From an uncultured Gemmatimonadales bacterium (lineage in GTDB: Bacteria > Gemmatimonadota > Gemmatimonadetes > Longimicrobiales > RSA9): a stretch of DNA of 64,000 nucleotides. The stretch spans positions 448,001 to 512,000 of the forward strand of contig CAVUKA010000003.1 in NCBI GenBank assembly GCA_963741945.1, in the 5' to 3' direction. The first letter of the stretch is position 1; the number at the start of each line of letters is the position of its first letter. The translations under genes were made by a program, and so were the position numbers. Positions 7,316-59,085 of the stretch are shown in pieces. Below the pieces are notes generated by a model. That model did not search any database. It was given only the letters and a program-made list of their open reading frames with translations, and was not told the origin of the DNA.

Positions 7316-7661
7316 CGCGCGGAGAACGCGGAGGAACAGCGGTCACGCGGAGGCGCGGAGAACGCGGAGGGGGCAGCGCTGGGATTGGGGGGGAGGGGCG
7401 TCGGGGGGTGGCCAGGGTACCGGGGACTCCGGGCAGCTTCGGGTCACCGGGCCAGCACAGGCCACACGAGGCGGCTCTGGCCGCGACGCCGGATCGGCCG
7501 CGAAGCGCGCTCGCGCCAGCCGAACCGGCTCTCGCCCCGACGCCGGATCCCGCCCCGCAGCCCGTTCGCGCCCCGATGCCCGATCCCGCCCCGATGCCGG
7601 CTGCGCCCCAGCTCCCCGGGGGCGCCCGCGAAGCCCTTCGCGATCTCCGCGTCTCCGCGTG
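7316..7661. repeat. CGCGGAG-arm element, copy 1: 28-bp inverted arms (7344-7371 and 7634-7661) around a 262-bp core that contains an 18-bp-period degenerate tandem repeat (~7552-7610)
   Basis: cacgcggaggcgcggagaacgcggaggg ... cccttcgcgatctccgcgtctccgcgtg; right arm is 27/28 identical to 56132-56159. Confidence 0.85.
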
Positions 7662-10893: not shown

Positions 10894-13788
10894 TCAGCCG
10901 ACAGGGGCGAGGCCCAGGACGTCCGCGAGGAAGCGACCGGTGTGCGAGACGGGATTCGCGGCCACGGACTCCGGGCTCCCCTCCGCCACGATCCGGCCAC
11001 CGGCCTCGCCGCCTTCCGGGCCGAGGTCGACGATCCAGTCGCCAGTCTTGATCACGTCCATGTTGTGCTCGATCACAATGACCGTGTTCCCCTTGTCCAC
11101 CAGGCGGTGGAGGACGGTCAGGAGCATGCGGACATCCTCGAAATGGAGCCCGGTGGTGGGCTCGTCGAGGATGTAGAGCGTCTGCCCGGTGTCGCGCTTG
11201 GCCAGCTCCGTCGCCAGCTTCACCCGCTGCGCCTCGCCGCCGCTCAGGGTGGTCGCGGACTGCCCCAGGTGGATGTAGCCGAGCCCGACGTCGCTCAGGG
11301 TCTGGAGCCGTCGCCTGATGGAGGGGATGGCATCGAAGAACTCGAGCGCCTCGTCCACGGTCATCTCCAGCACGTCCGCAATGCTGCGGCCCTTGTAGAG
11401 CACTTCCAGCGTCTCGCGGTTGTAGCGCTTTCCGCGGCACACCTCGCACGGGATGTACACATCGGGGAGGAAGTGCATCTCGATCTTCACGAGGCCATCG
11501 CCGCTGCACGCCTCGCAGCGCCCGCCCTTGACGTTGAAGCTGAAGCGCCCGGGCGCGTAGCCGCGGATCTTCGACTCGGGCAGCTCGGCGAAGAGGTTGC
11601 GGATGGGAGTGAAGAGCCCTGTGTACGTGGCCGGATTGGAGCGGGGCGTGCGCCCGATGGGCGACTGGTCGATGTCGATGACCTTGTCCACGCGCTCCAC
11701 GCCATCCAGCCCGTCGTGCGCGCCGGGGATGGTGCGCCGGCGGTAGAAGTGCCGGGCCAGCGCCTCGTAGAGGATCTCGTTCACGAGGGTGCTCTTCCCC
11801 GACCCGCTCACGCCCGTGACGCAGGTGAACGTGCCGAGGGGGAAGTGCACGTCGATGTCCTTGAGGTTGTTGGCGCGCGCGCCCCGGACGACGAGTGTGG
11901 CCTCGGGGTCCGGCGTCCGCCGCTCGGGCGGCGTCGGGATCTCGCGATCCCCGCGCAGGTAGGCGCCGGTGAGCGAGCGCTCGGCGGCCAGGATGTCGTC
12001 CAGCCGCCCTTCCGCCACCACCTCGCCTCCGTGGCGACCGGCCCCGGGTCCCAGGTCGATGACGTGGTCGGCGGCGCGGATGGTCTCCTCATCGTGTTCG
12101 ACCACGATGACGGTGTTCCCCAGGTCCCGCAGCTGCCGTAGCGTGTGCAGCAGCCGCTCGTTGTCGCGCTGGTGGAGCCCGATGCTGGGCTCGTCGAGGA
12201 TGTAGAGGACGCCGACGAGGCGGCTCCCGATCTGCGTCGCCAGCCGGATCCGCTGCGCTTCCCCGCCCGAAAGCGTCTCGGCGCTGCGACCGAGGGTGAT
12301 GTAGTCGAGCCCGACATTGGTGAGGAAGCGGAGCCGCTCGCTCACCTCCTTGAGGATCGGCCGCGCGATCTTGGCCGGCAGCGCGTCGGGGTCGTCGGGC
12401 GTCGTATCGCTGACGGCGAGGGACGTGAAGAACTCGAGTGCGCGGCTGACGCTCAGGTCCGTGGCGAAGCCGATGGACTCGCCGGCGACGGTCACCGCCA
12501 GGCTCTCGGGGCGCAGCCGGTGCCCACCGCAGGCGCGGCACGGCTGTGTCAGCATGTAGTCCCGGAGCTGATCCCGGACGTTCTCGGAGCCCGTCTCCTC
12601 GTAGCGCCGCATCACGTTGGCGAGGACGCCTTCCCACGGCTCCTTGTAGCTCCCCTTGCGGCCGCCCGTGCTGTAGGGAAACGAGACCTCCGTGTCGCCC
12701 GAGCCGAAGAGGACGGCGTGGCGAACGTCCTCGTCCAGGTCACCCCAGTTCGTGTTGGCGTCGAAGCCGTAGTGCTCCTCCAGCCCGGGAATCACCGAGC
12801 GGCGCAGATGGCCGGTGGGCGCGCCCCAGGGCAGGATCACGCCCTCGAGGATGGAGATCGACGGGTCTCCCACCACCAGCTCCTCGCTCACTTCGAGGCG
12901 AGTGCCCAGCCCGCCGCACGCCTCGCACGCGCCGTAGGGCGAGTTGAAGCTGAACTGGCGTGGCTCGATCTCCGGGATGGACGTGCCGCAATGGACGCAG
13001 GCGAAGCGCTCGGAGAAGAGGTAGGTGCCCGGCTCGGCTTCGCCCGGGCCGTCGCCGCCGTTCCGGGGCGCGTGCAGGACGACTTCCACGATGCCTTCTG
13101 CGGTCTTCAGAGCCGTTTCGATGGAGTCGGCCAGCCGCGCACGGTCATCGGGGCGGACCACGAGGCGGTCCACCACGACGGCGATCTCGTGGTTCTCGTA
13201 GCGGTTCAGCGTCGGCGGCTGCTCGAGGTCGTGGGTCTCGCCATTCACGCGCACGCGGACGAAGCCCTTCTTCCGCGCTTCGTCGAACAGCTCCCGGAAC
13301 TCGCCCTTCCGACCCCGCACGAGCGGCGCGAGCACTTCGATCCGTGCGCCCTCGGGCCAGAGGAGGATCCGGTCGGCGATCTGCCCGGCCGTCTGCGGCC
13401 GCACGGGGCGTCCGCAGGTGTGGCAGTGGGGCGTGCCCACGCGCGCCCAGAGGAGCCGCAGGTAGTCGTAGATCTCCGTGACCGTGCCGACGGTCGAGCG
13501 GGGATTCCTGCCGGTGGTCTTCTGCTCGATGGAGATGGCCGGGCTCAGCCCCTCGATCACGTCCACGTCCGGCTTCTCCATCACCCCCAGGAACTGCCGG
13601 GCGTACGCGGACAAGGACTCCACGTAGCGCCGCTGCCCTTCGGCGTAGATGGTGTCGAACGCCAGCGAGCTCTTCCCCGAGCCGCTGATGCCCGTGATGA
13701 CCACCAGGTGATCCCTGGGGATCGATACGTCGATGTTCCGGAGGTTGTGCTCGCGCGCGCCGCGAACGATCAGCTTTTCGTCTGCCAT
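10894..13788 (-). CDS. uvrA: Excinuclease ABC subunit A
   Basis: Two ABC domains ([26 protein letters not shown] x2), zinc-finger CxxC pairs. Confidence 0.98.
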
Positions 13789-38004: not shown

Positions 38005-38201
38005 GCAAAGGCGCGAAGGAGGCGAAGAGCGCGGAGAACCCCACGGCTCTCACGCGGAGACGCGAAGAGCGCGGAGGGGCACGCGTGGGCCTGCGGTGCG
38101 CGGGCGGAGTCCGGTCACCGGGCTACGCCCCCAGTCATTCGTAAGGGGGGGCGCCCCGCGGCGTCCGGGAGAGGCAGCGCTTTCGCCCGGGAATGCGCCC
38201 T
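38005..38201. repeat. CGCGGAG-arm element, copy 2: left arm (38051-38078) plus ~120-bp core; right arm absent
   Basis: aaccccacggctctcacgcggagacgcgaagagcgcggaggg resembles the reverse complement of the 38-bp unit at 56.1-56.5 kb; core aligns colinearly with 56016-56135. Confidence 0.8.
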
Positions 38202-53993: not shown

Positions 53994-54647
53994 ATGATCG
54001 CCCGCCCGTCCGTACGCGCGCTGCCGACCGCGGCTGTCGCTCTGGTCATGGCCATGGGGGCGTCCAGCGCGGCCGCGCAGGCGTGCGCGCCCCGTGGCTT
54101 CTCCGCGGGCGGGGCCGCCGCCGCGGTGCACTACGACATGGCGGGTGGCGTGAGCGGGACCGAAGTGGGCGCCGTGGTCCGCATGGCGGGCGCGGGACTG
54201 GCGCTGGAGGGCCTCTACGGGCGGCTGCTCCTGTCCGACGGGCGCCCGGAGCCGGACGTGGTGCGCGTGGTCGTCCGCGCGCCGCTGGCCTCGGTTCTCG
54301 GGGTCCATTTCTGCGCTGTGGCGCACGGCGGGGCCACGCGATTCAGCGTCGAGCGGGCGGATGGCCGCGTGGTCGCGGGCGGAGTGGGGCTGAGCGCGCG
54401 CCGGACGATCGGTCGGCTCACGCCATTCGGGGAGGTCCGCGCCCTGGCAGCGAAGAGCTCGGGCGCGATCCTGGACGTGGACGCGAGCGCGTCCGGGCAG
54501 GCCATCGGTGGCGACGCGGGGGCGGAGCTGGATCTCGGGCACCTGCAGCTCCGGGGGTCGGCCTCGTTCGACGGCCTTGCCGCCGGACTCGGCGCCACGC
54601 CGTACCCGACGCGCGCGATCCGGCTGGAGCTGCTCTACCGGTTCTGA
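53994..54647 (+). CDS. Small outer-membrane beta-barrel-like protein
   Basis: Signal peptide ending SAAAQ; alternating beta pattern; C-terminal LELLYRF. Confidence 0.6.
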   Translation: MIARPSVRALPTAAVALVMAMGASSAAAQACAPRGFSAGGAAAAVHYDMAGGVSGTEVGAVVRMAGAGLALEGLYGRLLLSDGRPEPDVVRVVVRAPLASVLGVHFCAVAHGGATRFSVERADGRVVAGGVGLSARRTIGRLTPFGEVRALAAKSSGAILDVDASASGQAIGGDAGAELDLGHLQLRGSASFDGLAAGLGATPYPTRAIRLELLYRF

Positions 54648-55702
54648 GCGTTCGCGCCATCACGCAGCACGCTGAGCGCGCCGCTCCCTTCCCCACCCAC
54701 CTGCTCGTACGTGCACTGGCGCGGGTCCTTGTCCGGCCGCCAGCGCTCCAGCGCGGTGCCGTGGCGGAAGCGTCCGCCCGTGAAGTGGTCGTACGTGACC
54801 TCCACCACCAGCTCGGGGCGGAGCGGCTGCCACTCCGCCGAGCGCTCCGTGGCCCAGCGGCTGGGGCCGCCCGGCCGTGAGCCGGTGAACCCCGGCTCCT
54901 CGATCAGCGGCTCCACCACGCTCCGGAGCCGGCGCCGGTCGCGGTCCGAGAAGCTGGAGCAGAAGCCCACGTGGTCGAGGCGCCCGGCGTCGTCGTAGAG
55001 ACCCAGGAGGAGCGAGCCGATGCCGCCGCCGGAGCGCGAGTAGCGGAATCCGCCCACCACGCAGTCGGCCGTCCGGCGCCGCTTCACTTTCAGCATGGCA
55101 TCGCGGGAGCCGGAAGCGTATCGACGCGACGGGTCCTTCGCCATCACGCCGTCCACGCCCGAAAGCCCGCGCAGCCAGTGGTCCGCGAGGTCCGGATCCG
55201 TGGTCGCCCGGGACAGGTGGAAGCCGGGCGCGTCCCCGAGGAACCGCGCCGCGAACCGCTCGAGGGCATCCCGGCGGTCGCGCAGCGGCCAGTCCAGGAG
55301 TGATCGGGTCGAGCCGCGCGCCAGCAGGTCGAACGCCACGAGCCAGGCCGGGGTCTCCCGCGCCAGCTTCCGGACCCGGCTCTCGGCCGGATGGATGCGC
55401 TGCAGGAGAAGGTCGAACGCCACATCGTCGCCGCGCGGCACCAGCAGCTCACAATCCAGGACGAACTGGCGGGCGCGGACCGCGCGCACGGCATCCACGA
55501 CTTCCGGGAAATAGCGGGTCAGCGGCTTGCACGACTTCGACTGGAGCTCGACCGTGCTGTGGTCGCGGAATACGACGCAGCGGAAGCCGTCCCATTTCGG
55601 CTCGTACAGCCACTCCCCCTCCGTCGGCACCACGTCCGCGCGCCTCGCCTCCATGGGCGGGAGCGGCGGCTCGACGGCCAGGTTCAGCGGCTGGAACGAC
55701 AT
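54635..55702 (-). CDS. ligC: ATP-dependent DNA ligase, LigC type
   Basis: PPLPPME, YEPKWDGFR (adenylated Lys), AFDLL, DGVMAK, LKVK, SLLLGLYD, VVEVTYDH, RFRH, WRPDK; start ATG 55702. Confidence 0.9.
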   Translation of the reverse strand: MSFQPLNLAVEPPLPPMEARRADVVPTEGEWLYEPKWDGFRCVVFRDHSTVELQSKSCKPLTRYFPEVVDAVRAVRARQFVLDCELLVPRGDDVAFDLLLQRIHPAESRVRKLARETPAWLVAFDLLARGSTRSLLDWPLRDRRDALERFAARFLGDAPGFHLSRATTDPDLADHWLRGLSGVDGVMAKDPSRRYASGSRDAMLKVKRRRTADCVVGGFRYSRSGGGIGSLLLGLYDDAGRLDHVGFCSSFSDRDRRRLRSVVEPLIEEPGFTGSRPGGPSRWATERSAEWQPLRPELVVEVTYDHFTGGRFRHGTALERWRPDKDPRQCTYEQVGGEGSGALSVLRDGANAQNR

Positions 55703-55768
55703 GGTGGCGGGTCTCCTCGGGTTCCGGTGGCCTCCCGCTCCGGCTCCGCGCAAATACTCCGCCAACGG

Positions 55769-56015
55769 CGCGGAGAGCGCGGAGGCGGCGGAGGACGCGG
55801 AGAACTGCAACACCGGGGCACGCGGAGGCGCGGAGGACGCGGAGAACTGCAACACCGGCGCACGCGGAGGCGCGGAGGACGCGGAGAACTGCAACACCGG
55901 GGCACGCGGAGGCGCGGAGGACGCGGAGAACTGCAACACCGGGGCACGCGGAGGCGGCGGAGGACGCGGAGAACTGCAACACCGAGGCACGCGGAGGCGC
56001 GGAGGACGCGGAGGG
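55769..56015 (+). repeat. Tandem array A: 42-bp unit cacgcggaggcgcggaggacgcggagaactgcaacaccgggg, ~5 copies plus terminal arm
   Basis: Units start 55819, 55861, 55903, 55945 (+1 nt) and 55988 (arm only), with a degenerate unit before 55819. Confidence 0.95.
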
Positions 56016-56131
56016 CTACGCGGGGTTGTGATCCACCGGAGAAGTCCGGTGACCGGGCTGGCCCGTTCATTATTTTTGGGGGGGGATCCCCCCGCAGAGT
56101 CCTGGCGAGACAGCTCCCTCGCCCCGGAACG
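56016..56131. other. Conserved 116-bp core of the CGCGGAG-arm element (copy 3)
   Basis: Contains AGTCCGGTGACCGGGCT (56043-56059) and GGGGGGATCCCCCC; colinear with 38079-38201. Confidence 0.75.
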
Positions 56132-56470
56132 CCCTTCGCGATCTCCGCGCCTCCGCGTGAGAGCCGTGGTTCTTCGCGATCTCCGCGCCTTCGCGTGAGA
56201 GCCGTGGTTCTTCGCGATCTCCGCGCCTCCGCGTGAGAGCCGTGGTTCTTCGCGATCTCCGCGCCTCCGCGTGAGAGCCGTGGTTCTTCGCGATCTCCGC
56301 GCCTCCGCGTGAGAGCCGTGGTTCTTCGCGATCTCCGCGCCTCCGCGTGAGAGCCGTGGTTCTTCGCGATCTCCGCGCCTCCGCGTGAGAGCCGTGGTTC
56401 TTCGCGATCTCCGCGCCTCCGCGTGAGAGCCGTGGTTCTTCGCGATCTCCGCGCCTCCGCGTGAGAGCCG
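56132..56470 (-). repeat. Tandem array B: 38-bp unit ttcgcgatctccgcgcctccgcgtgagagccgtggttc, 8 full + 1 partial copy, inverted relative to array A
   Basis: Units start 56135 + 38n up to 56439; one substitution seen (second copy). Confidence 0.95.
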
Positions 56471-56595
56471 CGGGGCACCGATCTTTGCGTGACGGGAAGC
56501 TGGGGGGCGAGTGGCGCGGGCTGGAGCGGCCATCCATATTCCCGCCCCGTACCTGATCCGATCCCACCGCATCCAGGACCATCGGAGGTTGCACC

Positions 56596-59085
56596 ATGCA
56601 TCGACTGCTGGCCGGCGCGCTGCTGATCGGCTCCGCCGCTGCGTGCGCGCATGCGGGGGCCACGGCGCCCACGCCCCCGTCCGCCGCCAAGCCACTCCCC
56701 TCCATCGCATCGAAGACGCAGGGCTTCGAGAGGATGGATGGCTTCCTGCCGCTGTACTGGGACGAAGCGGAGGGGAAGCTGTGGATGGAGGTGCCGGAAA
56801 CGGGGACCGAGCTGCTCTACGTCGAAGGGCTCACGGCCGGGGTCGGCTCGAACGACATCGGCCTGGACCGGAATCAGCTCGGTCGCACGCGCGTGATCCG
56901 CTTCGACCGCATCGGTCGGAAGCTGCTCGTGGTGGAGCCGAACTACGACTACCGCGCCGGAACGCAGAATGCGGCGGAGCGCCGGGCGGTGGACGACGCG
57001 TTCGCGCGCTCGGTCCTGTGGGGATTCCCGATCGCCGCGGAGACCGAGGGTCGACTGCTCGTGGACGCCACGGATTTCCTGATCCGGGATGTCCACGGCG
57101 TGGCCCGGCAGCTGAAGCAGACGAAGCAGGGGAGCTACAAGCTGGACAAGTCGCGCAGCGCGGTGGACCTCTCGCGGACGCGGGCCTTCCCGCGCAACAG
57201 CGAGGTGGAGGTGATCCTGACGTTCGAGGGCGAGCCCGAGGGCGGCTGGATCCGCTCGGTCACGCCGTCGCCGGAGGCGGTCACGGTTCGCGAGCGCCAT
57301 TCCTTCGTGCACTCGCCCCCGCCCGGCTACGAGCCCCGGCGCTTCGACCCGCGCGCGGGCTACTTCGACGTGGCGTGGAAGGACTACGCGGTGCCACTGG
57401 GCGAGCCGCTGGAGCAGCGATTCATCACGCGGCACCGGCTGCAGAAGAAGGACCCGGGCGCGGCCATGAGCGATCCGGTGGAGCCGATCGTGTATTACGT
57501 GGATCCGGGCGTGCCGGAGCCGATCCGGTCGGCGCTGGTGGAGGGCGCCGGCTGGTGGAACCAGGCGTTCGAGGCCGCGGGGTACCGGAACGCCTTCCAG
57601 GTGAAGGTGCTCCCGGATACCGCCGATCCCATGGATGTCCGCTACAACATGATCAACTGGGTGCACCGCTCCACACGCGGCTGGAGCTATGGCAGCTCGG
57701 TGGCAGACCCGAGGACGGGTGAGATCATCAAGGGGCACGTGCTCCTCGGATCGCTGCGGGCGAGGCAGGACTACCTGCTGGCGGAAGGGCTGCTTTCCCC
57801 GTACGACTCCACCGGTGAGGTCCCTTCGGCCATGCGCGAGCTGGCGCTGGCGAGGATCCGTCAGCTTTCGGCCCACGAGGTCGGGCACACGCTCGGGCTG
57901 GCGCACAACTACCTGGCGAGCAGCGAGGGACGAACGTCCGTGATGGACTACCCGCACCCGTTGGTGAAGCTGACGGCGGACGGCTCCATCGACCTGTCGG
58001 ACGCCTATGACACGGGGATCGGCGAGTGGGACAAGGTCTCCATCGCCTATGGATACTCCGATTTTGCCGATGGCGCCGATGAGGCGAAAGCGCTCGAGCG
58101 GATCATCCGGGCGGCGAGGGAGGACGGGCTGCTCTACCTGACGGATCAGGACGCGCGGCCGGCCGGGAGCGCGCATCCGCAGACGCATCTCTGGGACAAC
58201 GGCGTGGATGCCGCGCAGGAGCTGCGGCGGATGCTGACGGTGCGCAAGGCGGCGCTCGACCGTTTCGGCGAGCGGGCCATCCGCATGGGAATGCCGCTCG
58301 CGACCATGGAAGAGGCGCTGGTCCCGCTCTACCTCCACCACCGATACCAGGTCGAGGCGGCCACCAAGGTGATCGGGGGGCAGTACTACACCTACGCCAT
58401 TCGCGGCGACGGGCAGGTCCCGGTCCGGAGCGTGCCAGCGGAGCAGCAGAGCGCCGCGCTGGACGCTGTGCTCGAGACGCTCTCGCCGTCCGTGCTCGCG
58501 CTGCCGACGGAGCTGCTGAAGCGGATTCCGCCCCGGCCGGCGGGCTTCCCGTCGCACCGTGAGCTGTTCGATCGCTATACGGGGATCACGTTCGATGCCG
58601 TCTCGCCGGCGGCTGCGGCCGCCGACCTGACCCTGTCGTTCCTGCTCCAGGAGGAGCGGGCAGCGCGGCTGGTGGAGCAGCACGCCCTCGATCCGTCGCT
58701 CCCCGGATTCCAGGACGTGCTGGAGCGGCTCGAGCAGGGCTCGTTCGGCGCGGCCGCGGCCAACCCCTACGAGGCGGAGATCAAGCGCGTGGTCGAGGAA
58801 GCGATGGTGGAGCGTCTGATGGGGCTGGCCGCGAGCGCGCCGATGCCCCAGGTTCGGTCCGCCAGTGAGCTGGAGCTGCGACGGCTCCGTGACCGGCTGC
58901 AGGCGGCGGCGCGGGGCGCGAGCGACGAGGACCGGGCCACCGACCTCCGCCTGGCGAGCGACATCCAGCGCTTCCTCGACCGGCCAGCGGGCCCGTGGTC
59001 ACCAGCCGGTCCGTTGCCGGCGCCGCCGGGGAGCCCGATCGGGGGAGGCGGCGACTTCATTCAACCCTGGAACGGAACGCCATGA
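56596..59085 (+). CDS. Secreted zinc-dependent metalloprotease (DUF5117/DUF4953, EcxA-like met-zincin)
   Basis: Lipoprotein-like signal (AAAC); FDPRAGYF, DPRTGEIIKG, HEVGHTLGLAHN, SVMDY Met-turn; RBS GGAGG. Confidence 0.9.
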   Translation: MHRLLAGALLIGSAAACAHAGATAPTPPSAAKPLPSIASKTQGFERMDGFLPLYWDEAEGKLWMEVPETGTELLYVEGLTAGVGSNDIGLDRNQLGRTRVIRFDRIGRKLLVVEPNYDYRAGTQNAAERRAVDDAFARSVLWGFPIAAETEGRLLVDATDFLIRDVHGVARQLKQTKQGSYKLDKSRSAVDLSRTRAFPRNSEVEVILTFEGEPEGGWIRSVTPSPEAVTVRERHSFVHSPPPGYEPRRFDPRAGYFDVAWKDYAVPLGEPLEQRFITRHRLQKKDPGAAMSDPVEPIVYYVDPGVPEPIRSALVEGAGWWNQAFEAAGYRNAFQVKVLPDTADPMDVRYNMINWVHRSTRGWSYGSSVADPRTGEIIKGHVLLGSLRARQDYLLAEGLLSPYDSTGEVPSAMRELALARIRQLSAHEVGHTLGLAHNYLASSEGRTSVMDYPHPLVKLTADGSIDLSDAYDTGIGEWDKVSIAYGYSDFADGADEAKALERIIRAAREDGLLYLTDQDARPAGSAHPQTHLWDNGVDAAQELRRMLTVRKAALDRFGERAIRMGMPLATMEEALVPLYLHHRYQVEAATKVIGGQYYTYAIRGDGQVPVRSVPAEQQSAALDAVLETLSPSVLALPTELLKRIPPRPAGFPSHRELFDRYTGITFDAVSPAAAAADLTLSFLLQEERAARLVEQHALDPSLPGFQDVLERLEQGSFGAAAANPYEAEIKRVVEEAMVERLMGLAASAPMPQVRSASELELRRLRDRLQAAARGASDEDRATDLRLASDIQRFLDRPAGPWSPAGPLPAPPGSPIGGGGDFIQPWNGTP

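Follow-up and report, generated by a model that had tools for sequence, protein, structure and literature searches.

Between the divergent starts of a DNA ligase gene and a metalloprotease gene in an uncultured Gemmatimonadales bacterium (GenBank assembly GCA_963741945.1; GTDB Longimicrobiales, RSA9) lies a 702-bp block of repeats, at 55769–56470 of the window, by which we mean the whole 64,000-nt stretch analysed (contig CAVUKA010000003.1, positions 448,001 to 512,000, forward strand). The block consists of two tandem arrays, A (55769–56013) and B (56134–56470), that face each other around a 120-bp core and have a 26-nt arm in common. We show below that these arms belong to a dispersed repeat family that is linked to genes for GxxExxY proteins of the PD-(D/E)XK nuclease fold. 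The features of the locus, in window coordinates, are the following.

54635–55702, minus strand: ATP-dependent DNA ligase gene, called ligC in the original prediction (DNA_ligase_A_M 95.5 bits, DNA_ligase_A_C 54.9 bits).
55769–55802, plus strand: outermost unit of array A, degenerate, with four heptamers resembling CGCGGAG and no CAC terminus (sequence reading; covered by the array that Tandem Repeats Finder reports).
55803–56013, plus strand: array A proper, five plus arms, each behind a 16-nt linker (aactgcaacaccgggg and variants) (Tandem Repeats Finder, arm search and reading).
55819–55844, 55861–55886, 55903–55928, 55945–55971 (27 nt, one extra base) and 55988–56013, plus strand: the arms of array A.
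56014–56133, no strand: core of 120 nt, richer in AT towards its centre; it contains a G8/C6 hairpin as well as two motifs, GTCCGGTGACCGGGCT and GGCGAG-N8-CTCGCC (sequence reading, folding and core comparison).
56134–56470, minus strand: array B, nine minus arms, at 56134–56159 and then every 38 bp up to 56438–56463.
56596–59085, plus strand: exported Met-zincin gene (DUF5117 + DUF4953; DUF4953 243.9 bits, DUF5117 127.3 bits).

Tandem Repeats Finder (TRF) places array A at 55778–56013 (period 42, 5.6 copies, 96% matches) and array B at 56134–56470 (period 38, 8.9 copies, 99% matches), which bears out the facing 42-bp and 38-bp arrays with a shared 26-nt arm that had been read from the letters alone. 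The true start of array A is 55769 by sequence reading; its degenerate outermost unit is not detected as an arm at ≤4 mismatches. Array B has a 12-nt linker, agagccgtggtt, and ends in a 7-nt partial linker. Read on one strand, the linkers are aactgcaacaccgggg in array A and aaccacggctct in array B, and so differ between the arrays as the original prediction stated; within each array they are identical or nearly so, unlike the unique spacers of a CRISPR array. The 17-mer CACGCGGAGGCGCGGAG has 16 matches in the window at ≤2 mismatches against 0.20 expected, a count reached by none of 100 shuffles, and it lies on the plus strand in array A and on the minus strand in array B, the opposite orientation that had been claimed for it.

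In a repeat search, every listed unit of array A pairs with every listed unit of array B over 29-nt arms at 90% complementarity, and the innermost pair is 82% complementary over 38 nt. Folded as single-stranded DNA, the 702-nt block reaches −272.1 kcal/mol compared with −191.5 ± 6.8 for 20 shuffles (z = −11.9), and the innermost arm-core-arm unit folded as RNA reaches −114.5 compared with −79.6 ± 4.4 kcal/mol (z = −8.0). The potential for a hairpin in multiple registers, in which any A unit can pair with any B unit, is therefore real. As a separate observation, the core contains a T-run followed by a G8-AT-C6 hairpin (ttatttttggggggggatcccccc) at 56072–56093, which a simple scan does not call a terminator on either strand and whose G8 tract could slip.

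The ligase gene starts 66 bp from array A and the Met-zincin gene 125 bp from array B, and the block takes up 702 of the 893 bp between the two starts; that it fills most of this spacer had been correctly noted. Scans of 55500–56750 returned no sigma-70-like promoter and no terminator-like site, and a search of 54500–57500 against Rfam 15 at E ≤1 gave only two matches to eukaryotic families, both below the gathering score, which we take as chance. The block is flanked by genes for a DNA ligase and a Met-zincin rather than by replication or partition (rep/par) genes, and similar arms occur at about 30 loci genome-wide (see below), which makes an iteron-like protein-loading platform specific to this locus unlikely. 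For the suggestion that the core is invertible we found no support: there is no recombinase gene among the neighbours of the block, and no read or contig spans the core to show its orientation.

The block is a member of a family that is dispersed over the genome holding the window (G000; 4.09 Mb, 8 contigs, 70% G+C). The 26-nt arm reads CACGCGGAG-n-CGCGGAG-nn-CGCGGAG and so comprises three CGCGGAG heptamers with a period of 8–9 nt, CAC/GTG pointing outward and GGAG(GG) inward, and the outer linker beyond it starts with AAC. Genome-wide, the 17-mer at ≤1 mismatch gives 47+35 matches against 0+1 for the reversed control, and the 26-nt arm pattern 55+42 against 0+0. At ≤4 mismatches there are 138 arms in 40 clusters; 53 of these arms match exactly, 44 have one mismatch and 18 have two. 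Among 6-mers that recur three times at an 8–9-nt period, GCGGAG is the most frequent in the genome. This amounts to about 30 loci with family copies, mostly intergenic. All 20 clusters with arms in both orientations read plus block, core, minus block, and the lone minus/plus pair of neighbours within 2 kb is a weak exception, its members being 1480 bp apart and one of them a singleton with 3 mismatches. Hence, the element has a fixed polarity.

The cores of these copies are usually ~110 nt long (range 62–430) and diverse in sequence, and the motifs GGTGACCGGGC and GGCGAG-loop-CTCGCC are kept in several loci. The core of the 55769–56470 block was originally described as unique, which does not stand: it belongs to the same subfamily as the cores at window 38077–38200 and at G000:C6:217389. 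We also considered the core motif GTCCGGTGACCGGGCT as an independent repeat and rejected it, given that 13 of 17 matches (≤2 mismatches) lie away from arm loci, mostly in long open reading frames (ORFs), and look like chance matches. The window itself holds two further copies.

7318–7661, no strand: second copy, with an outer partial arm, a plus arm at 7344–7369, a 266-nt core and a minus arm at 7636–7661.
38012–38200, plus strand: third copy, one-armed, with a partial outer arm, the linker aaccccacggctct, a plus arm at 38051–38076 and a core like that of 55769–56470.

The 17-mer occurs in the second copy at 7344 (plus) and 7645 (minus) and in the third at 38051 (plus); no right arm is recognisable in the third. 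Two long cores are themselves repetitive: that of the second copy contains tandem repeats of 54 bp × 2.4 and 18 bp × 4.2 (window 7480–7609), and a 424-nt core at G000:C3:312604–313027 consists of about three ~75-bp units.

The gene context of the family was taken from a crude ORF caller for 31 clusters, 9 singletons with more than 2 mismatches having been dropped; the counts are rough because the caller missed the ligase gene. No ORF spans 28 of the 31 clusters, 18 start ≤90 nt past the end of a plus-strand ORF and 10 lie between convergent ORFs, so that a position between divergent starts, as at 55769–56470, is the minority context. The frequent position directly past gene ends, together with the RNA fold of the inner unit (z = −8.0) and the motifs kept in the cores of several loci, would fit an element that acts at the RNA level, in which transcribed copies have stems that serve as RNase III sites, terminators or stabilisers, or a core that is a small RNA, and the arrays yield multi-register double-stranded RNA. 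We consider this unlikely as an account of the block, which lies upstream of both of its neighbours and not behind a gene: beyond the two chance matches no Rfam family was found at 54500–57500, there is no terminator-like site, and the core stems are conserved in sequence with no compensatory change in the core alignment. The RNA-level reading is, at the same time, compatible with the block being a copy of a dispersed element.

Comparison with relatives shows that the block is not an ancestral part of this promoter region. The two genes also adjoin each other in G001, which belongs to the same genus, and their spacer there is 211 bp long and armless, compared with 893 bp in G000, or 191 bp once the block is subtracted. 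The 702-bp block is therefore an indel rather than an ancestral promoter feature, and the original idea of a one-off device at this promoter region fails both on its absence from the G001 spacer and on the ~30 dispersed copies. Four further orthologous spacers were compared.

C5:161510: 68 bp in G001, 661 bp in G000.
C3:455344 (window 7344): 78 bp in G001, armless; 460 bp in G000.
C1:1171869: 62 bp in G001, armless; 425 bp in G000.
C1:1323260: 477 bp in G001, armless; 718 bp in G000.

None of the five orthologous G001 sites has recognisable arms. The CGCGGAG arm is patchy more widely, being found in 9 of 40 relatives (a set that includes G016 and G017), with none in G001, 37 in G007 and 93 in G038, which represents another family of the order. 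Exact metagenome scans with the left flank and with the right flank returned 0 stretches each, and hence no strain variants or empty sites.

The arms of the family are linked to nuclease-like genes. G000 contains two PDDEXK_3 genes, both of which have arms of this design.

C3:851453–851920, minus strand: first PDDEXK_3 gene (PDDEXK_3 121.1 bits, TIGR04256 121.4 bits).
C2:6984–7331: second PDDEXK_3 gene, bracketed by inverted CGAAGG-type arms.

The product of the first gene keeps D86, E96 and K98 as well as the GxxExxY positions of the alignment. A perfect CGCGGAG arm lies before the gene at 851939–851964, and further arms lie behind it in direct, not inverted, order. Gene-less pairs of the CGAAGG-type arm of the second gene exist elsewhere in G000. 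A compact cassette with the CGCGGAG arm is found in G038 (C303:11263–11770), in which a plus arm (11263–11288), 43 nt, the gene (11332–11682), 62 nt and a minus arm (11745–11770) follow one another; this genome has 45+48 arms, and ~45 other pairs are gene-less hairpins with arms mostly ~51 nt apart from start to start. Arms of such design flank all 12 PDDEXK_3 genes examined in six genomes (2 in G000 and 10 in G001, G007, G030, G032 and G038). They are inverted at 11 of the 12, and the G001 gene has CACGGAG-type arm arrays on both sides. In the five relatives each gene has its own heptamer: CGCAGAG, CACAGAG, CGCCGAG, CACGAAG, CGCGAAG and CACGGAG.

A FastTree phylogeny of 16 proteins, some of them partial, places all seven CGCGGAG-armed proteins on one side of a split with a support of 0.999. 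The arm-linked C3 protein of G000 is 62–67% identical to CGCGGAG-armed proteins of G038 and of Rhizobium, Rhizomicrobium and Dongiaceae metagenome-assembled genomes (MAGs), with 60% for the protein of locus L076 and 56% for that of L139, compared with 48% to the paralog with other arms in its own genome. From these identities and the tree split, gene and arms seem to travel together.

An AlphaFold2 model of the C3 nuclease, built from a 10-sequence alignment, has a mean predicted local distance difference test (pLDDT) score of 88.4. In a Foldseek search against the PDB it had no match at E ≤0.001, and the weaker rows are all PD-(D/E)XK proteins (Cas4 SSO0001 best at 7.5e-3, then splicing endonucleases, CinB, Hjc, MGME1 and lambda exonuclease); a PDB sequence search gave no match at E ≤1. 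As far as a predicted structure can, this confirms the fold class as PD-(D/E)XK and names no subfamily. Steczkiewicz et al. (2012) list PDDEXK_3 as of unknown function, with ‘multiple transfers’.

Several further observations concern these genes and arm types. A GxxExxY cassette sits at the same site in two related genomes, G038:C303:10700–12300 (L163) and G032:C53:165400–166950 (L172); the two cassettes differ in every heptamer of both arms, consistently CGCGGAG in the first and CGCAGAG in the second, the proteins are only 72% identical and the last ~90 aligned columns of the right flank are identical. The contrast points to cassette replacement or to concerted arm change at a fixed site. Several arm families coexist in G007: beside its 37 CGCGGAG arms there are 47 matches to CACGGAGNNCACGGAG, which often face each other in pairs, and each of the six GxxExxY genes has an arm word of its own. 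The pattern CACGGAGNNCACGGAG has no match in G000 and none in G001, for whose own CACGGAG arm type it was ill-chosen. A different gene, the single 23S_rRNA_IVP (four-helix-bundle) gene of G000 at C1:638976–639287, has direct arrays of 23–29-bp units (CGTTTTCGTGTCCGTG... type) on both sides (C1:638506–639450), and a similar array occurs at C3:60319–60524.

The same arm is found far outside the phylum. An exact scan of one genome per species with the CGCGGAG arm pattern gave at least 126 stretches, whereas we estimate ~1 match by chance even if all 596 Gb were 70% G+C. Among the matches listed are Holophaga foetida DSM 6591, Trichlorobacter thiogenes ATCC BAA-34 and a Desulforhabdus isolate, along with MAGs labelled Verrucomicrobia, Planctomycetes, Thermoanaerobaculia, Chloroflexi, Armatimonadota, Nitrospirae, Leptospira, Flavobacteriales and many Proteobacteria. 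Many of these cross-phylum matches form plus-then-minus pairs around a loop of 2 to ~160 nt, and the flanks of some are AT-rich. A PDDEXK_3 gene, sought with a profile from 11 proteins, lies within 300–400 nt at 6 of the 126 listed arm loci, in 5 places. The scarcity of arm arrays in these genomes is uninformative because short-read assemblies would break at such arrays. No obvious vector for GxxExxY cassettes emerged from plasmid and phage records: by tblastn, 8 of 72,556 plasmid records carry a GxxExxY gene, every one of them typed non-mobilizable, compared with 0 of 50,697 phage records. On the 1.1-Mb plasmid 1 of Gemmatirosa kalamazoonensis KBS708, a cultured Gemmatimonadota, a GxxExxY gene stands between two complete small CGCAGAG hairpins and not inside one (993307–994659; L182); it was matched in two pieces and may be frameshifted.

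An alternative is a regulatory role for the host, in which the heptamer arrays would be bound by a nucleoid protein or a chromosomal regulator, and the facing arrays would control how the divergent promoters of the ligase and the metalloprotease are spaced or looped. Such a role is suggested by the position of the block between two divergent starts, and the same architecture in Geobacter metallireducens is annotated as ‘predicted global regulator binding sites’ by Aklujkar et al. (2009; PMC2700814). We nevertheless regard it as improbable. Most copies of the family follow gene ends (18 of 31 within 90 nt, 10 of 31 convergent), G001 manages without the block here and without arms at three further sites, the identical arm is found in many phyla, even in AT-rich flanks, and in just 9 of 40 relatives, and the promoter scan of 55500–56750 found no sigma-70-like site. 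The block may have an effect on the two promoters, which the original prediction had suggested it tunes.

Amplification of the arms is a genome-wide habit of the family. With a TRF filter of period 20–150, ≥3 copies and score ≥100, G000 has 54 strong tandem arrays; 19 of these consist of arms, and most of the top scores belong to them. The top-scoring arm arrays are as follows.

C5:623587: 95 bp × 7.9, 100% matches.
C5:161706: 43 bp × 10.3.
Array B of the 55769–56470 block: 38 bp × 8.9.
C1:92559: 42 bp × 8.2.
C3:78694: 36 bp × 8.6.

The largest array of the family, C5:623587–624581, has a 95-bp unit made of linker, arm and 54 nt of core and faces an array of 42 bp × 4.3; a core 98% alike to its own is found at C2:111332–111503. 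Strong arrays of other sequence also exist in G000, such as C5:113000–113375 (101 bp × 3.7, 98%) and C3:627414–627748 (78 bp × 4.3, 93%, unit CGAACGGAGGGAAAGGCGCCGCGCCA...).

Across the family loci, the arm arrays have periods of 35, 36, 37, 38, 42, 43, 44 and 95 bp. Matches within an array are 87–100%, and period and linker differ among loci and between the two sides of one locus. Two arrays, with 95-bp and 108-bp units, include 54–82 nt of core, and the outermost units are often truncated or degenerate; unit 0 of array A is one example, and the arrays at C1:92554, C1:831576 and C5:182891 also begin with such units. Non-amplified copies carry an AAC-starting linker and a partial second arm outside the full arm (for example window 7318–7369 and C5:268415), and thus a built-in direct pair of arms 35–45 bp apart. 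The arrays arose locally and recently, and the varied periods and linkers, the alike units, the degenerate outer units and the core-bearing units indicate ordinary tandem duplication with unequal exchange or slippage. This fits the original proposal of near-identical units amplified independently on each side, as in a variable-number tandem repeat, and extends it to arrays of varied period at other loci of the family. Arm loci make up ~0.8% of G000 and yet account for 19 of the 54 strong arrays, a concentration which suggests that the arms promote duplication, perhaps through hairpin extrusion or breaks.

The same concentration of arrays at arms could also be the work of a dedicated enzyme that adds arm units stepwise at the ends of the element, as the original prediction had suggested, and the concerted heptamer difference between the orthologous G038 (CGCGGAG) and G032 (CGCAGAG) cassettes could be read in that way. 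Such templated or enzymatic end extension is very unlikely in our view and is not needed. Non-amplified copies already carry the outer partial arm and linker, and the frequent truncated or degenerate outermost units are what tandem duplication from a two-arm seed predicts; unit length and linker vary by locus and by side, some units include 54–82 nt of core and look like tandem duplications, and the arrays have no candidate enzyme as a neighbour.

An assembly artefact, with only one or two true units per side, would be in keeping with the finding that no contig of three DNA runs spans the block, large parts of array B and the core being uncovered by the Logan contigs. Two of the runs, one of which may be the source sample, contain pieces with the locus-specific linkers that have collapsed to a length of exactly period + 30 nt (68 nt in the case of array B and 72 nt in that of array A). 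The depth of the 68-nt piece is 27 compared with 3.5–5.5 in the flanks in run X1, and 6.7 compared with 2.5–3.9 in run X2; the unit is thus multi-copy, and we do not read the raised depth as copy-number variation. These pieces, the assembly of the genome in 8 contigs and the 19 similar arrays assembled at other loci leave an artefact with hardly any credibility.

Taken together, the block at 55769–56470 is probably a gene-less copy of a dispersed hairpin-type element tied to GxxExxY cassettes, each arm of which has been tandemly amplified on the spot. Given that the same arms bracket a PD-(D/E)XK gene (GxxExxY, PDDEXK_3, TIGR04256) once each in G000 and G038, the block would relate to the cassette as a REPIN (a hairpin-forming doublet of repetitive extragenic palindromes, REPs) relates to a RAYT (REP-associated tyrosine transposase), or as a miniature inverted-repeat transposable element (MITE) relates to its transposon. 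The block would have entered, or been kept in, the ligase/metalloprotease spacer after the split from the lineage of G001. Each side would then have grown alone through tandem duplication of ‘arm + linker’, most likely by replication slippage or unequal exchange within the direct pair of an outer and an inner arm present in every copy. The duplication may be promoted by breaks at the arms or by the extrusion of hairpins or cruciforms. The nuclease may act on the arms and so spread or maintain the copies.

Several points weigh against this interpretation. Copy numbers are confirmed by no spanning read or contig, the three DNA runs being available as short Logan contigs. No direct repeat is visible at the flanks of the block. 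No target-site duplication or exact insertion junction is readable, because the flanks are 78–92% identical to G001, and the 68 bp at the G001 site that corresponds to C5:161510 may be a decayed relic, so that some copies could be old and not newly inserted. G007 has 37 CGCGGAG arms, yet none of its six PDDEXK_3 genes is so armed, the closest word being CGCGAAG, in an assembly of 420 contigs. CGCAGAG arms are found in both protein clades, and arm type and protein clade are therefore not in a one-to-one relation. The cores are not recognisable as remnants of a nuclease gene; a decayed gene was looked for and rejected, with a best E of 7.4 for six-frame core translations in a profile search and blastn matches to the cassette of merely 18–28 nt. 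Finally, we know of no activity for any GxxExxY protein.

More tentatively, the arms could be the recognition or cleavage sites of the cognate GxxExxY nuclease. Cassette and hairpins would then form a REPIN/RAYT-like selfish system with another enzyme fold, moving as a unit among phyla, and the arrays would be scars of breaks repaired by unequal sister exchange; we hold this extended version to be possible but doubtful. If it is true, the facing arrays are fast-changing minisatellites able to remodel spacers such as the ligase/metalloprotease promoter region. If the nuclease link is functional, the family represents a class of bacterial repeat element that is very widespread and has apparently not been described before, and it offers a testable role for the large GxxExxY/PDDEXK_3 protein family. 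The amplified arms indicate that elements of this kind can give rise to the strongest minisatellites in a genome and can lengthen promoter regions by hundreds of base pairs of DNA able to form hairpins. For annotation it is useful to know that the arrays break short-read assemblies and that translated heptamers can pass as protein N-termini.

Among known systems, REP/REPIN sequences and their RAYTs offer a close parallel: many short intergenic inverted-repeat hairpins, with the repeats also flanking one or a few small enzyme genes, and a patchy occurrence among relatives. The arm family likewise consists of many intergenic hairpins, has the same repeats around a small enzyme gene and is patchily spread. 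However, the arm-linked gene encodes a PD-(D/E)XK fold (PF13366/TIGR04256), whereas RAYTs are Y1 HUH transposases, and the arms are reiterated heptamers rather than single palindromes, with the identical arm shared across phyla. A direct RAYT link was tried and rejected: the Y1_Tnp match in G000 scores merely 28.9 bits, in a 334-aa frame at C1:755443 with no arm cluster near, and G007, with its 37 arms, has no Y1_Tnp match. Like MITEs, the copies are gene-less, dispersed and intergenic, have terminal inverted repeats of fixed polarity and are present or absent between close genomes; they differ in that no target-site duplication is readable (the empty sites are too diverged), no transposase sharing the ends was seen and the core is no internal-deletion remnant. 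Foldback (FB) transposons of eukaryotes have long inverted termini composed of short units in tandem, placed around a central loop. The block resembles them in its inverted tandem-array termini, unequal copy numbers per side and central loop, although the likeness is one of form only, FB elements being eukaryotic, with much longer arrays and other sequences.

In the literature on GxxExxY, PDDEXK_3 or 23S_rRNA_IVP, judged largely by titles and abstracts, we found no account of these elements, and the 15-mer CGCGGAGGCGCGGAG has 0 occurrences among the papers listed for the arm strings, in which the 9-mer matches were unrelated. The closest printed description we found is that of site classes 1–4 in Geobacter metallireducens (Aklujkar et al. 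2009, PMC2700814). These sites pair up across the two strands with varying distances between them, are present in many copies per genome and each contain four or five hepta- or octanucleotide repeats in tandem. They consist of other words (GTTGCTYN, MTYCTGA) and are read as regulator sites, and the main-text passages of that paper (PMC2700814) describe no link to a nuclease gene and no whole-arm arrays. The block fits best among the hairpins of GxxExxY cassettes, with its inverted arms of reiterated heptamers with CAC outward, the same arm at a PDDEXK_3 gene in G000 and its presence in G000 and absence from G001. It differs from the gene-less hairpins of that family in the amplification of whole arms with their linkers into facing arrays, and what this locus contributes is these arrays, of 6 + 9 units here, together with the finding that arm arrays account for 19 of the 54 strong arrays of the genome.

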